Source of the DNA: a virus
Lineage: Duplodnaviria > Heunggongvirae > Uroviricota > Caudoviricetes
Reading direction: 5' to 3' (one strand)
Virus record (IMG/VR): IMGVR_UViG_2534681661_000011
Location: 1 to 5,846 of that record
DNA length: 5,846 nt
Shown here piece by piece: positions 1 through 5,846 of the stretch. The notes under the pieces were generated by a model that saw only the letters and a list, made by a program, of their open reading frames with translations, had not been told where the DNA came from and ran no database searches. Position 1 is the first letter of the stretch, and every line of letters starts with the position of its first letter. Position numbers and translations under genes: made by a program.

Positions 1-1
1 G

Positions 2-223
2 CTGGCGATTACCGGCTTTACTCCGAATGCCCTGCAACAGCGTGCTTCTCATTGCCTGTATACCATTGCCGAAGAACAAGCGACAAACAGTGCTTCAATC
101 TCTGCTTGTCACGCTCAGGGAATGTTAACGGATTTGCTGTTCATTGCGCTGATTCAGCAGGATCTGGAACTGGCACCAGAACGTATTCGTCATAGTGAAG
201 CGCTGGTGAAAAAACTGGTCTGA
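2..223 (+). CDS. yfhH: 3' end of a host transcriptional regulator gene (RpiR-like, SIS-domain C-terminus); partial, start lies upstream of the window
   Basis: Frame 2 is open from position 2 to a TGA at 221-223 and encodes ...LAITGFTPNALQQRASHCLYTIAEEQATNSASISACHAQGMLTDLLFIALIQQDLELAPERIRHSEALVKKLV*. Not in the ORF track because it has no in-window Met. Family and gene name are from memory: the tail resembles the C-terminus of SIS-domain regulators, and yfhH lies immediately upstream of yfhL in E. coli K-12. Not verified by search. Confidence 0.5.
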   Translation: MAITGFTPNALQQRASHCLYTIAEEQATNSASISACHAQGMLTDLLFIALIQQDLELAPERIRHSEALVKKLV

Positions 224-523: not shown

Positions 524-802
524 ATGGATAATATTATGCGCAGAAAAGAGTCAAACGTTAGCAGTTTGCCGGAACTCACCAATTTTGAGGTAAGCTATTC
601 TCTGGTTACCAATGAAGTTTACTTGTCTGCATCCTTCACTGATAACATGGCCTGTATACCAAACTGGCCCTTACAAGAATTTCCGGATCAACTAATATGC
701 ATTTCTCGAGCAAAAGCTGTTGCCCTAATCGAAGAGCTCCAGAAGACCATCAACTATATGGATGCAGGAATAGTTCGAAGTTCAGGTAGCCTTCTCCAGT
801 AG
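524..802 (+). CDS. Hypothetical small protein (92 aa from the ATG at 524; alternative ATG at 536); may not be coding
   Basis: Sub-region of track ORF 368..802. The first 52 codons of that ORF run across a palindrome and poly-C tracts and look non-coding, so I start at the internal Met (MDNIMRRKESNV...). No good Shine-Dalgarno, several rare codons (aga, ata, cta, cga), no recognisable motif. Confidence 0.3.
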   Translation: MDNIMRRKESNVSSLPELTNFEVSYSLVTNEVYLSASFTDNMACIPNWPLQEFPDQLICISRAKAVALIEELQKTINYMDAGIVRSSGSLLQ

Positions 803-860
803 CTGACGAGTTTTATAATAATTTGATATATATATCGTTCAATATTAGCGAGTACTTATA

Positions 861-1508
861 ATGAGTGAATTTAGTAATCTTTTAAATAGCATACCTGGAT
901 GGTTATCCTCCTCCCTCACAGCTCTAGTTGGTACTCTTATTGGCGGATGGTTTACCCTAAAAGGAGTCACCCAACAAGCTAAGCTGTCTAAAGTAGAGAC
1001 AGAAAGAGAATCCCTTGAATTACAACTTTCAGTATTAAAAGGAGTTAAGGGAGAAGTTTTCACCCTAATCAATTTATATAATAAAAGGATGAAAACACAC
1101 ATTGATAATATAAAACCGGGACAAATGTTGATTCTCACATTCCCTGTAGGGGATGATAATTTCACATTCTATGAGCAAAATGCGAATGTCATTGCAAAAC
1201 TAAATGATTCTGCTAGAGACTCAATAATTAACATATACACATATTCACGCTCATTAATACAATCATTTAAAGGAAACAACAAACTCATTGAGGATTATGA
1301 AAAAATCCTTATTGGCATGGCAGACAATAACAAAGATAAAACCATGTATAAAAGATTACATGATGCAAAAATAAATGTAATGGTAGATTATGCTCAAGGG
1401 ATAAAAAATATTGATGCAGAGCTAAGAGATGCTGTCAATAAGGGATTCGACATTATCGACCAAGAAGTAAAGTCACTACAAATGAAATTAAACAAATTAG
1501 CTTCATAG
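861..1508 (+). CDS. Hypothetical membrane-anchored coiled-coil protein (215 aa); prophage cargo and candidate phage-exclusion or defence protein
   Basis: Clean ORF in a markedly AT-rich stretch compared with the flanking pin and tail genes (by inspection, not computed). One hydrophobic segment near the N-terminus (GWLSSSLTALVGTLIGGWFTL), then a charged Lys/Glu/Asn-rich region with heptad-like character. No catalytic motif recognised. Sits where e14 of E. coli K-12 carries mcrA. Confidence 0.7.
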   Translation: MSEFSNLLNSIPGWLSSSLTALVGTLIGGWFTLKGVTQQAKLSKVETERESLELQLSVLKGVKGEVFTLINLYNKRMKTHIDNIKPGQMLILTFPVGDDNFTFYEQNANVIAKLNDSARDSIINIYTYSRSLIQSFKGNNKLIEDYEKILIGMADNNKDKTMYKRLHDAKINVMVDYAQGIKNIDAELRDAVNKGFDIIDQEVKSLQMKLNKLAS

Positions 1509-1588: not shown

Positions 1589-2143
1589 TCATTTATCTCC
1601 GACCGGAAACTTCTTATACAAAGTCGATACGCCAACATCATAAATGATCGCCACCTTCTGGCGAGGAACTCCTGATGCAATTAGTCGCCCGGCCTGCGCC
1701 CATTGTTCTGGTGTAAGTTTGGGACGACGTCCACCAATTCGTCCCTGTGCGCGAGCAGCTTCCAGTCCAGCTTTTGTTCGTTCAACAATCAGTTCTCGTT
1801 CCATTTCAGCCAGGGCACCCATCACATGAAAGAAAAAACGCCCCATCGGTGTGCTGGTATCAATTGAATCCGTCAGACTACGAAAGTTAATGCCTCGTTC
1901 GCGCAACCCCTCCACCAGCACGACAAGATGCCGCATACTGCGCCCCAGTCGGTCCAGCTTCCAGACAACCAGAGTGTCACCTGCCGATAATGTCCTAAGC
2001 AGTTTTTTCAGTCCCGGCCTTTCGGACTTTGTGCCGCTTATCTTGTCTTCAAAAATCAGCTCGCATCCTGCACAGTTCAGCGCATTACGTTGTAGATCTG
2101 TGTTCTGGTCATTTGTTGATACGCGTACATAGCCAATAAGCAT
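1589..2143 (-). CDS. pin: Serine-recombinase DNA invertase of the Pin/Gin/Cin/Hin family (184 aa)
   Basis: Encodes MLIGYVRVSTNDQNTDLQRNAL...GDTLVVWKLDRLGRS...MGRFFFHVMGALAEMERELIVERT...VSTLYKKFPVGDK, with the catalytic Ser in the VRVSTNDQ motif and a C-terminal HTH. I use the ATG at 2141-2143, which has an AGGGGGA Shine-Dalgarno 5-7 nt upstream, rather than the track's ATG at 2179, which adds 12 non-conserved residues. Confidence 0.95.
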   Translation of the reverse strand: MLIGYVRVSTNDQNTDLQRNALNCAGCELIFEDKISGTKSERPGLKKLLRTLSAGDTLVVWKLDRLGRSMRHLVVLVEGLRERGINFRSLTDSIDTSTPMGRFFFHVMGALAEMERELIVERTKAGLEAARAQGRIGGRRPKLTPEQWAQAGRLIASGVPRQKVAIIYDVGVSTLYKKFPVGDK

Positions 2144-2197: not shown

Positions 2198-2223
2198 TTT
2201 TCATAAACGTTGGTTTGGGAGAA
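2198..2223. other. Invertase crossover site, pin-proximal (26 bp)
   Basis: Plus strand ttttcataaacgttggtttgggagaa; its reverse complement ttctcccaaaccaacgtttatgaaaa shares the first 14 nt and the central AA with the site at 4123-4148 in inverted orientation. Matches the gix/cix/pix-type site architecture as I recall it. Confidence 0.8.
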
Positions 2224-2562
2224 GCGGCTAAAAGGAATGTAGGGACAGGGGCGAATCAGATACCTGATATGGGTAGCTTCACGCTTTCTGTTTCAGGTAC
2301 TGGATATCAAAAATTACCATCAGGTTTTATTCTTCAGTGGGGCTCAATCGGCGCACCAGGCATTGCACAGGATGTAGTAACCCATTTCCCGATTGCATTT
2401 CCAAACAGATGTCTGCGTGTTTTGGTCTCACAAGACTACACACCAGATAGCGGGGCTGTTGGTTATATTGCCTGTGCAGGTTTTAGTCCCGACCCGGTTA
2501 AATTTATATCCAGAGCCAGTACTCCTGGCCTCGGCGCTTCATTTTTAGCGTTAGGCTGTTAA
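2200..2562 (+). CDS. Silent alternative tail-fibre C-terminal segment (no start or promoter of its own); would be fused in-frame to the tail-fibre constant region after inversion
   Basis: Frame of track ORF 2170..2562. The coding part begins inside the crossover site: aac gtt ggt ttg gga gaa = NVGLGE, parallel to ENLGLGE in the expressed gene. Continues ...[29 protein letters not shown]..., which looks like a fibre tip domain. The leading MMPFARYF... of the track ORF is read-through of non-coding sequence. Confidence 0.65.
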
Positions 2563-2583
2563 TTTAGCTATATGGAGTGAAAA

Positions 2584-3024
2584 ATGAATTACATATATTC
2601 CGCGACTACAAACTCTTTCTATCCGCTGGAGATGAAAGAGGATTACACTCAAGCTGACTCATGGCCAGATGATGCTGTTGAAGTTGATGAGCAAGTGTAT
2701 ATTGAGTTTTCCGGATTACCGCCGAAAGGAAAAATCCGTATCGCTGGAGAAAATGGTTTTCCTGCATGGTCTGAAATTCCACCACCAACACATGAGGAAC
2801 AGATTGCTGCAGCCGAACTGGAAAAGCAGCAACTGATTAATCAGGCCAACGATTATATGAACAGTAAACAATGGCCTGGTAAAGCGGCTATTGGCCGGCT
2901 GAAAGGGGAGGAACTGGCGCAATATAATTTGTGGCTGGATTATCTGGACGCACTGGAACTGGTCGATACTTCCGGTGCGCCAGATATTGAATGGCCTACG
3001 CCTCCGGCAGTTCAGGCCAGATGA
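2584..3024 (+). CDS. Tail-fibre assembly protein (Tfa/U family, 146 aa), partner of the silent fibre variant
   Basis: GGAG 7 nt upstream of the ATG. C-terminus ...[27 protein letters not shown] is the conserved Tfa C-terminal motif. Lies directly downstream of the silent fibre segment inside the invertible region. Confidence 0.85.
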   Translation: MNYIYSATTNSFYPLEMKEDYTQADSWPDDAVEVDEQVYIEFSGLPPKGKIRIAGENGFPAWSEIPPPTHEEQIAAAELEKQQLINQANDYMNSKQWPGKAAIGRLKGEELAQYNLWLDYLDALELVDTSGAPDIEWPTPPAVQAR

Positions 3025-3601
3025 CATCCGGCGCGGTGCTGGTATCTGTTGCCGTCACCGCGTCAATGTAATCCAGCGCAGCGTTAAGTCGGGCGGTTTC
3101 TGCCTGCGTCAGATTCCGTCCGGCCTGCAATTTCAGCTGAATCAGACTAATGGAAGCCATTGCAGTATCAATCAGTGACTGACGCTGTGCTTCTGCCGCG
3201 CCTACTGCGGCGCTATGCTGTGCCACAGTATCTGTTACCCATTTCTCACCATCCCATTCATCGTATGGCGTTAACGGGGCGATAGTGGTTGTATTTTCAG
3301 GATAATCACCCGGAGCTGTGATTTCTTTCGATTCTCCTGTTTCGGTGCTATAGATGATTTCACCGCGATGGTCTGACACATATTCCCATGAGTTTAAATC
3401 TGCCGAACGGCAGATTGCATAACCAGCCTTATGTGTGCCAGGAGCATCTAAACAGGAATATGCAGGGATACCGACACCCACAGCAAGATATTCAGTTGAT
3501 GCAGAAATATACTCCCGTGTCTCACTGTCATAGTTATAAACGGTAATCTCTCCTGCCTTTGTGGCAATAAATTTACTATTCAAGATGGCGTTATACATCA
3601 T
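2996..3601 (-). CDS. Tail-fibre assembly protein (Tfa/U family, ~200 aa), partner of the currently expressed fibre
   Basis: Start ATG overlaps the stop of the upstream tail-fibre gene (ATGA, 3598-3601), consistent with translational coupling. C-terminus ...[30 protein letters not shown] is the conserved Tfa motif. Size and N-terminus ([11 protein letters not shown]...) resemble TfaE-type proteins from memory. Confidence 0.85.
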
Positions 3602-4473
3602 GCAGCCCTCACAATGTAATTAAATGAAATATTACGTGGGCGTGTCTCTGCTGCACCGACAATACTGGTACTCAACCCCGTCGCTGTTCGTTTGTTATTT
3701 TTATTTCCTTCAATCAGACAGTTGTAATCATCATTACCAATTAACGAATTAGTGGCATCAATACCGTCCGGGGACAAGGCATTAGTTGTAGAACTTAAAG
3801 TCAGCATCTCGTCTGAACTTGGAAGATTTTTTAATGGTATTTCATTGCGAGAAATACCCGCGTAAAAAAAGGACTCATGCCTGTGCGCTTCAAAAGAGTC
3901 ATCCTGAAGACTTAGCAAGGCACGTCCCGCATCCACACCACGCCCGTCATCCCAGCCACGAATAAACTCACCACGTAAATCAGGCAATTTATTTGTCGGA
4001 TAAGCCTTTGCCAGTTCCGGGTATTCTTCAGCAGAAAAAGCGGCACCGTTGCATTTCAGCCAGCCTGTTGGCGGAGTGGCGGAAGGCCACGGAACAGGCA
4101 CGCCAACGGGTAATGCCGAACCTTCTCCCAAACCAAGGTTTTCGAGAGCCGTTTTCACCGTGCCATCCGATTTGATATCACCAAACGGATTCTTGCGGCT
4201 CAGGTATTCAACAGCAAACCCCGATCCCAGCAATTCAACAAAACCGGGCAGATCACCATTATCAAGCACATCCCGTTGCGTTTTGTCACTTACAAACTGG
4301 GCCAGAGCTGCAGCAATAAAGCTGGCCTGCCGAATAACCTTATTGACTTGCGCACTGGATGCTTTCCCTGCTGTAAATCCGGATAAAAGCGCAGGCAACG
4401 CTTCCCATTCCTCCTGCGACATAACATTGGCATTCCGATCAGTTGCAAACGCTTTAAAGTCATTTTTCGCCAT
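3598..4473 (-). CDS. Tail-fibre protein: constant N-terminal region (outside the invertible segment) fused to variable region A
   Basis: Encodes [27 protein letters not shown]... and ends ...[15 protein letters not shown], with a tail-collar-like region ([24 protein letters not shown]). I prefer the ATG at 4471-4473 (GGAG ~10 nt upstream; TGATG overlap with the upstream gene's stop) over the track start at 4491, which has its Shine-Dalgarno too close and overlaps the upstream gene by 19 nt. The crossover site at 4123-4148 lies in-frame inside the gene (..[10 protein letters not shown]..). Confidence 0.85.
4123..4148. other. Invertase crossover site, pin-distal (26 bp), inside the tail-fibre gene at the constant/variable boundary
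   Basis: ttctcccaaaccaaggttttcgagag; inverted partner of 2198-2223 (14 of 14 identical in the inner half, same central AA). Confidence 0.8.
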
Positions 4474-5153
4474 CAGAGTAATACTCCCCATGCCCCTACA
4501 TCAAAACCACTGATGAATTCGTTATCCATATCAAAACCAAAAAATTTTGAACCTTCCGATGGAGTTTCCACCGAAGGTGTTTCAATGCCACCCGCCCAAA
4601 CCCCGGCGGCTTTTACTGTGAGATATCCCTGTTTAATTGCAGCAATTAACTCACGCGATACATCTGAAATATCAGTATCAGGAAAGAGCCAGACCGATAT
4701 CGTCATGTCCTGGTTATCGACTATCTGCATTCGCAGTCCGGATCCTGCTGTCGCCGCGTCAAGAATTGCTGGAAGCGAATCATTCCGTCCGTCCCAGTTA
4801 TTAATCGCAATCTTCGCTTTAAGGATGACACGATAAGTTTCATCGCTGAGGTACATGTATCCGGAATCAGGATCGTATGGCCCCTGCCATACACCCTGAT
4901 CATATCCAAGCCCGTCGGTATCCCAGCTGAAATAGACACCTGAGATAGGCTGGCTGACAACACGGCTACGTCCGATCCACAATCCAAGAATGTCAAGTTG
5001 CACACCAACCGCAGAGTCAATATCAAATGCAGTAATCAGCCCTCTGGTGGCAGCCGCAACATCAATAAGCGGCCGGGTCATCAGATCAACATGTGCAAGA
5101 AATTTAGGTTTGGTGGCGTGGTAGTTCGTGATCAGTTCGGTGTATTTGCTCAT
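4473..5153 (-). CDS. Phage tail/baseplate protein immediately upstream of the tail fibre (YmfQ / Mu gp48 / P2 gpI-like by position), 226 aa
   Basis: Complete ORF whose start overlaps the upstream gene's stop (ATGA at 5150-5153) and whose stop overlaps the tail-fibre start (TGATG at 4471-4475). Assignment is by gene order in Mu/e14-type tail modules; the family was not confirmed by sequence motif. Confidence 0.6.
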
Positions 5154-5452
5154 GACTCCACCGTTATAACGATATTTTCCGGTGTACAGGACGCAGATTC
5201 GTTGTATCTGATATCAATGTTTGATGACGACAAAGCCCCCGGGGATTTCCCAATCGTCAGTTCCTGAATATCGTAATAGCGTGCATTCCCGCCACTCACC
5301 ACGCCAAGATTCGCCGGTGAGTAAATGCGACTTAAAAGGACCGAATCACCAATCATCAGACTATTGATATAGTCGGAAATAGCCTGCTGGATCTGCTGCC
5401 CTATCTGTGAGGTATAACCCGTAAAAACTTTTAATTTAATCCGGGCATAAAC
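5150..5452 (-). pseudogene. 3' portion of the next upstream tail/baseplate gene (baseplate J-like by position), apparently cut off by the IS element
   Basis: Minus-strand frame ...VYARIKLKVFTGYTSQIGQQIQQAISDYINSLMIGDSVLLSRIYSPANLGVV...NIVITVES* is protein-like and coupled to the downstream gene. Only ~100 codons remain before the putative IS end at 5453; the frame stays open into the IS by chance until a stop at 5585-5587. Confidence 0.4.
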
Positions 5453-5846
5453 GTAAGCGTACAGCCTGAACCGTCTGGTCAGAATCTGACGAATTAGACA
5501 AAGTGGTGTCCACCAAATAAGTAGTGGGAACCAAAGTGTCAGATATGCAGAAAAATGTGACTCCCGGCAGGCGAAAAGGCAGCCCTAATTATCCTCCCGA
5601 ATTTAAACAGCAGCTCGTTGCTGCCTCCTGTGAACCCGGGATATCCATCTCAAAACTTGCTCTTGAAAATGGCATTAACGCCAATCTGTTGTTCAAATGG
5701 CGACAACAATGGCGCGAGGGAAAGCTGCTATTACCTTCTTCAGAGAGCCCCCAGCTACTTCCTGTGACTCTCGATGCAGCTGCCGAACAGCCAGAATCGC
5801 TCGCAGAGGACCCGAAAACCCTCAGTATCAGCTGTGAGGTAACGTT
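5453..5846 (+). mobile_element. Left end of an insertion sequence, probably IS66 family; continues beyond the window
   Basis: GTAAGCG at 5453-5459 matches the characteristic IS66-family terminus as I recall it, about 90 bp upstream of an HTH accessory gene. The exact boundary is uncertain without the other end. Confidence 0.5.
5545..5846 (+). CDS. IS-encoded HTH accessory/transposase protein (TnpA/OrfA-like), N-terminal part; open to the end of the window
   Basis: Encodes MQKNVTPGRRKGSPNYPPEFKQQLVAASCEPGISISKLALENGINANLLFKWRQQWREGKL..., the typical RR..S.EFK...V....G.S.........LL.KWR helix-turn-helix signature of IS3/IS66-type first ORFs. No stop within 100 codons. Confidence 0.6.
   Translation, partial: MQKNVTPGRRKGSPNYPPEFKQQLVAASCEPGISISKLALENGINANLLFKWRQQWREGKLLLPSSESPQLLPVTLDAAAEQPESLAEDPKTLSISCEVT

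Follow-up and report, generated by a model that had tools for sequence, protein, structure and literature searches.

Does a prophage in which an IS has broken a baseplate gene, and in which the invertase, tail fibre and cargo genes are intact, reveal selection for functions that serve the host? The question is raised by a stretch of 5,846 nucleotides (hereafter the window), which is contig AQDP01000042.1 of assembly GCA_000355055.1 in reversed orientation (locus L011). A preliminary description, made from the letters alone, had placed an IS66-family-like element in a tail gene and had interpreted the locus as a defective prophage kept for host-beneficial functions. The best explanation as a whole, which we consider highly probable, is that an ISEc22-like element recently inserted into a myovirus-type prophage of approximately 42 kb and split its baseplate J/gp47 gene. 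The prophage, which is otherwise intact as far as seen, occupies yfhL in a CS7 lineage of enterotoxigenic E. coli (ETEC). The IS, this kind of event and this kind of prophage module are all already known, and we regard the case as one of ordinary biology.

The IS66-family element at the end of the window

The layout of the window is given in Table 1. The prophage is integrated in the 5' end of yfhL via the 38-bp core listed there, and the identical 38-mer adjoins the integrase-proximal, restored yfhL in ETEC-2264. The replacement 5' end of yfhL on the integrase side is supplied by the prophage (MSLL... versus MALL...; L023, 29445-29705).

Table 1. Features of the window (coordinates refer to the 5,846-nt stretch)
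Feature	Position	Strand	Remarks
yfhH, 3' end	1-223	+	
yfhL (ferredoxin gene), displaced 5' stub, 16 codons	279-326	+	ends in attachment core
Attachment-site core, 38 bp, TAATCACTAAAAAATGCATCAATTGTGATATGTGTGAA	289-326		within displaced yfhL 5' end
Start of prophage DNA	327		
Cargo ORFs, 88 aa (536-802) and 215 aa (861-1508)	536-1508	+	
pinE-type serine invertase, 184 aa, intact	1589-2143	-	Pfam Resolvase and HTH_7
Invertible fibre segment, 20-bp inverted repeats at both ends	2205-4141		inverted-repeat pair
Tail fibre in current orientation, constant N-terminus plus Collar-type C-terminus, 291 aa	3598-4473	-	Pfam Collar
DUF2612/Phage_Wedge1 gene, 226 aa, intact	4473-5153	-	Pfam PF11041, E 9e-47
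Baseplate J/gp47 3' fragment, 303 nt, codons 300-399 plus stop	5150-5452	-	
Left target-site duplication copy, GCATAAAC	5445-5452		
IS66-family element, left 394 nt of 2441 bp	5453-5846	+	contig ends inside
Left terminal inverted repeat, GTAAGCGTACAGCCTGAACCGTCT	5453-5476	+	
tnpA, IS66 accessory protein with helix-turn-helix, codons 1-100 of 126	5545-5846	+	

In complete E. coli genomes, all uninterrupted prophage copies match the window up to position 5452 and none of them beyond, and the 394 nt that follow are identical to a 2441-bp IS. The IS terminus proposed at 5453 is thus real, and it is settled by this homology comparison rather than by the GTAAGCG motif. The latter occurs once in the window (5453-5459) and is by itself weak evidence of an IS end, with 0.41 matches to the 7-mer expected by chance and at least one match in 72 of 200 shuffled sequences. 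Positions 5453-5846 are 100% identical both to the IS as rebuilt from two sibling contigs (L010 and L014) and to a plasmid copy (L013, 1501-3941). Sibling contigs reach further into the IS from the left side; the 2426 nt present in L010 are 100% identical to copies that ETEC-2264 and E2980 have on their CS7 virulence plasmids, labelled by PGAP as 'IS66-like element ISEc22 family'.

The complete element measures 2441 bp and has the gene order tnpA-tnpB-tnpC. Its inverted repeats, GTAAGCGTACAGCCTGAACCGTCT on the left and GTAAGCGTGCAGCAAGAACCGTAT on the right (reverse complement), agree at 20 of 24 positions and both open with GTAAGCG, in line with the terminal inverted repeats of 20-30 bp opening with this motif that are described for the IS66 family (PMC11946415). 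Members of the family have three ORFs, encoding TnpA (with a helix-turn-helix), TnpB and the DDE transposase TnpC (PMC12888890). In the plasmid copy identical to our element, all three products were recognized: TnpA with 98.2 bits (NF047595, cut-off 74), TnpB with 119.9 bits (NF033819, cut-off 50) and the 512-aa DDE transposase with 467.5 bits (NF033517, cut-off 180). The same three genes are called in the siblings, where the complete 126-aa tnpA product is seen. The window itself holds only the first 100 codons of tnpA, which had been noted as an HTH accessory gene; this truncated ORF still matches Pfam HTH_Tnp_1 (E 7.6e-13) and NCBIfam NF047595 (80.9 bits versus a cut-off of 74). The 8-bp target duplication of the IS66 family is likewise present, with GCATAAAC on both sides of the element. 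The presence of an IS66-family element in the baseplate gene, at 5452/5453, is thereby borne out.

Compared with the ISEc22/ISEc8 group, which is found on E. coli plasmids and chromosomes, the element shows 100% nucleotide identity over 2441 bp and shares the GTAAGCG repeats, the order of the three genes and the 8-bp duplication; the insertion site is the sole difference. Copies labelled ISEc8 also come close, with 98-99% identity to the 394 IS nucleotides of the window. The finer designation, ISEc22-like, hence depends on the sibling contigs and on the PGAP annotation of the 100%-identical copies.

Several megablast matches opened 7-16 nt before position 5453, as if the IS were longer, and were dismissed, the flanks concerned being chance or loose similarity of targets. 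The target octamer of the window, GCATAAAC, resembles the target octamers or flanks of other IS copies (L002, L024, L025, L026), namely ACATCAAC, GGATCAAG, ...CATAAAA and ..GTATAAAA, with ACATCAAC and GGATCAAG present as duplications around other copies. BLAST matches open a few bases before the true IS end because these target octamers and flanks look alike. The sites, too few for statistics, hint at a loose nnATnAAn target preference of ISEc22/ISEc8.

Both junctions of the insertion

The intact prophage of ETEC-2264 reads ...GCATAAAC directly followed by AGGTACAT, versus ...GCATAAAC followed by GTAAGCGTACAGCC in the window, and the octamer GCATAAAC is present as a single copy in this empty site. 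The far side of the IS lies outside the window. It was found in six contigs (L014-L017, L019, L020), which include Logan assemblies of the raw runs ERR217374 and SRR446711. These contigs read ...CGCTTAC, then GCATAAAC, then AGGTACAT, the same octamer thus reappearing after the right IS end (L014, L015, L016, L019, ERR217374 and SRR446711). The parts of the IS reached from the two sides overlap over 1744 nt with 0 mismatches, and removal of the IS together with one octamer rebuilds the ETEC-2264 sequence exactly. The other IS end, the 8-bp duplication and the remainder of the gene, for which an extension of the sequence had been proposed as a check, are accordingly all located beyond the IS in the siblings. 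The event is a simple transposition with the 8-bp target duplication GCATAAAC, because both sibling junctions are at hand and the empty site is rebuilt exactly from them. For the window's own assembly, AQDP01, we infer a simple insertion from the identical left junction, the far junction being known from the sibling assemblies.

The window is a short contig (5846 bp) ending in a multicopy IS, and a short-read artefact that joined a repeat to phage DNA could in principle produce such an end. However, the identical junction is present in seven independent assemblies and the reciprocal one in six others, the two Logan assemblies among them, and an 8-bp duplication is the expected mark of a real transposition. 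The probability of an assembly chimera is, in our view, negligible. The left junction is common to seven contigs base for base, and its carriers amount to at least seven draft assemblies on the left side and six on the right side. In none of 5426 complete RefSeq E. coli genomes was the junction found.

IS activity often leads to the deletion of adjacent DNA. As the window ends inside the IS and nothing is visible beyond, a deletion or rearrangement bounded by the IS might have cost the baseplate gene its 5' part and the prophage its upstream DNA, so that about 100 codons were all that was left. Against this stand the siblings with the identical left junction, in which the right IS end is followed by the second copy of GCATAAAC, by codons 1-302 and by the tail genes upstream, with both junction contigs occurring together within two assemblies (AQDC01 and AQDI01). 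We consider such a loss very improbable, and simple insertion remains the preferred reading.

Simple insertion also makes a specific prediction for the 5' part of the gene, which should read ...GTT TAT GC/G TAA (the slash marking the junction) and thus encode residues 1-302 followed by a stop codon made by the junction itself. An exact-sequence look-up retrieved this 302-aa product (...DVPVYA, then TAA) verbatim from GenBank as EMV38019.1, EMV45546.1, EMV57245.1 and EMV70310.1, entries that belong to the E. coli strains 2872800 and 2875000, in which the 68-aa ORF derived from the 3' fragment occurs as well (see below). Contig-end IS fragments in draft assemblies can be resolved in this manner, with a look-up of the predicted truncated product, and the locus may serve as a worked example. 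Three further truncated forms (P0001, P0005 and P0021), which were 90%-identity cluster representatives from a search with the baseplate N-terminus, were set aside as contig-end or unrelated truncations.

In mechanistic terms, the 2441-bp ISEc22-like element transposed into the baseplate J/gp47 gene at codon 302/303. It most probably came from a copy on the CS7 virulence plasmid of the strain itself, as suggested by the 100% identity, although other identical genomic copies may exist.

The interrupted baseplate gene

The uninterrupted baseplate J/gp47 gene comprises 1200 nt and encodes 399 aa in ETEC-2264 (L001, 13147-14346), in E2980 and in phage vB_EcoM-606R2. The possibility that the gene is complete as a short protein in related phages was thereby tested, and the gene proved to be of full length in the intact prophages as well as in the phage. 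The product encoded by 5150-5452 corresponds to residues 300-399 and matches the C-terminus of WP_001197068.1 without a difference, in agreement with the earlier estimate of about 100 C-terminal codons. The 399-aa protein contains the Pfam domain PF04865, Baseplate_J (residues 85-342; 55.7 bits versus a cut-off of 21.1), and belongs to PHROG 6, baseplate wedge subunit (E 1.9e-75). The 100-aa fragment, searched alone against Pfam, gave no match. The cut at residue 302/303 falls inside the Baseplate_J domain.

The IS splits the gene into a 5' piece, encoding residues 1-302 and closed by the junction TAA, and a 3' piece of 100 codons that does not begin with a start codon. The only start available to the latter is an internal ATG, giving the 68-aa ORF (5150-5356). 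The same 68-aa ORF is called in unrelated assemblies too, where it was rejected as a trace of the IS event. In L003 (9009-10207) and L004 (790-1990), the gene is broken into parts of 329-330 aa and 68 aa by single-base indels in homopolymers, and L009 (5957-6186) is a metagenome scaffold that covers no more than the final 230 nt of the gene; sequencing artefacts or independent lesions are the likely causes. L018 was likewise rejected as an IS event, its contig ending in the intact gene.

The baseplate J homologues P2 gpJ, T4 gp6 and Mu gp47 are essential wedge components. By analogy with their roles, we infer that neither a functional wedge protein nor a functional baseplate is made with the split gene and that the prophage should fail to build infectious tailed particles. 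The start of the DUF2612 gene overlaps the stop of the baseplate J gene, and polarity of the insertion on the DUF2612 gene is therefore probable. The genes downstream, which are translationally coupled (DUF2612, fibre, assembly), would probably be expressed at a lower level. The IS genes run antiparallel to the late operon of the phage, and a search on both strands of 5100-5846 for an outward promoter at the IS end, from which the phage genes downstream might be transcribed, detected no sigma-70-like site. The prophage may still be able to excise, to replicate and to lyse the cell.

The gene downstream of the break had been described as ymfQ-like. It is a DUF2612 gene that resembles K-12 YmfQ in position only, a BLASTP comparison of the two proteins giving an E value of 4.7 as against the Pfam match listed in Table 1. 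Its place between the baseplate J and fibre genes suggests a baseplate role. In PHROGs, it is assigned to phrog_587, 'head and packaging, structural protein'.

Age of the lesion, cargo genes and fibre switch

Strains 2872800 and 2875000 are CS7-expressing ETEC (PMC6301781). The closest complete genomes are those of the CS7 ETEC strains ETEC-2264 and L3_CS7_E2980 (the ETEC lineage-3 reference), and the baseplate gene is intact in both. The window is 99.93% identical to ETEC-2264, with four differences that comprise one substitution and three single-base gaps. The gaps lie in homopolymers of ETEC-2264 (window positions 2381, 3627 and 3770), where the fibre annotation is fragmented, and are probably long-read assembly errors rather than biology. 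Beyond the IS, 8008 bp of L014 overlap the ETEC-2264 locus with 99.96% identity and three differing positions. In the approximately 10 kb inspected upstream of the break in the siblings, all called genes have the same lengths as in ETEC-2264, including those for spike, sheath initiator, plug, tape measure, tube and sheath; head, lysis and replication genes were seen in ETEC-2264 only. An IS identical to plasmid copies, a perfect duplication, 99.96% identity upstream and near relatives with an intact gene indicate that the insertion is recent and polymorphic within one lineage. The other prophage genes examined are intact simply for lack of time to decay, and the prophage is not a decayed remnant. 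In its baseplate-fibre region it shares gene order and 97.7-99.9% nucleotide identity with vB_EcoM-606R2 and its relatives and with the yfhL prophages of ETEC-2264 and E2980, which, unlike the window, have the uninterrupted 399-aa baseplate J gene.

The preliminary description had rightly called the invertase, both fibre variants and the cargo gene intact: these are open, as are the fibre assembly genes and both cargo ORFs. The two cargo ORFs matched nothing in Pfam, PADLOC and NCBIfam. The 88-aa ORF matches phrog_17793; the 215-aa protein is without a match in PHROGs. Homologues of the latter with 62-75% identity occur across Enterobacterales. Its AlphaFold model (pLDDT 80.8) shows a helix at the N-terminus and then a long helical bundle, for which a comparison with the PDB gave no fold match with E <= 0.001. 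Among the homologue loci inspected (L028-L033), those in Providencia prophages immediately follow a CI-type repressor gene and an HSDR_N gene, and that in a Dickeya island lies beside ccdAB. Such typical accessory or defence positions would fit a lysogen-expressed accessory gene.

The locus bears a likeness to e14 of K-12, which also has a Pin-controlled invertible fibre module beside a cargo gene at the prophage end and an inactivated baseplate J gene. There, the jayE pseudogene is combined with stfP/tfaP/tfaE/stfE, pinE and the cargo gene mcrA, and nucleotide identity with our module amounts to 94% for pin and 88% for tfaE. Together with the persistence of the insertion, which is common to several isolates from more than one sequencing project, and with the lysogen-expressed or defence-type positions of the cargo homologues in other elements, this resemblance could be taken to mean that the prophage is an old, decaying e14-like element in which selection kept the invertase, fibres and cargo, the tail genes being lost. 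We regard such domestication as improbable. e14 is a much older, multiply damaged remnant of 15 kb at icd with several pseudogenes, whereas the prophage described here spans about 42 kb at yfhL and is, as far as seen, otherwise intact; the wedge gene of e14 is ymfQ (DUF2313) instead of DUF2612, its cargo gene is a different one, and the lesion here is a single recent IS. This IS is the only lesion found. Ten or more tail and baseplate genes upstream of it are open, within a region that matches intact prophages over the 8008 bp mentioned above, and neither the IS nor its duplication has accumulated changes relative to the plasmid copies and the empty site. The closest complete genomes, moreover, have the intact gene.

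As long as decay has not been differential, nothing signals selective retention. The pattern that had been read as retention of host-beneficial functions does not hold up, as the tail and baseplate genes in the approximately 10 kb upstream are just as intact as cargo and switch. The latter two say nothing on selection, since the genes have had too little time to decay to different extents: an intact cargo gene beside a broken structural gene can be read as selective retention only where decay has affected the remainder of the element. The fibre variants, furthermore, serve the phage and not the host, and disruption of a tail gene gives the host no protection from death on induction, which remains lethal.

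What the recent-insertion reading leaves us with is a known IS that, at a new site, presumably inactivates one prophage in one ETEC sublineage. The junction provides a clean marker for this lineage, useful because of its absence from the complete genomes searched. There is a slim chance that the IS-disabled prophage is kept in the circulating CS7 ETEC sublineage for a reason, the block in virion assembly locking in a useful lysogen function. Candidates for the latter could be the membrane-anchored 215-aa cargo protein, in view of the defence-type positions of its homologues, or Pin acting in trans. If this were true, the locus would represent an early, datable step of prophage domestication, and the flipping fibre switch would be a hitch-hiker.

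The switch itself has the features of a Pin-type system, namely an invertase with Resolvase and HTH_7 domains, flanking 20-bp repeats and the occurrence of both orientations. The repeats (2205-2224 and 4122-4141) are 95% complementary. The segment contains the gp53-like alternative fibre C-terminus (2170-2562, +) and two tail-fibre assembly genes (2584-3024, +, and 2996-3601, -). Both C-termini are open, the Collar-type giving a fused product of 291 aa and the gp53-like one of 229 aa, and so are both assembly genes; the fibre gene at 3598-4473 is backed by gene calls in the sibling loci L006, L008 and L011. Orientation is as in the window in L006 and L008. Four of the seven siblings with the insertion (L005, L007, L010 and L012) have the segment inverted, with breakpoints inside the 20-bp repeats, and in E2980 it is inverted as well, again with breakpoints in the repeats. 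At least one inversion took place after the insertion, because both orientations occur among contigs with the same insertion. Thus, the switch still flips, with Pin as the candidate invertase. In L012, the constant fibre region is present on both sides of the segment, which suggests an artefact of the kind expected from a culture of mixed orientation.
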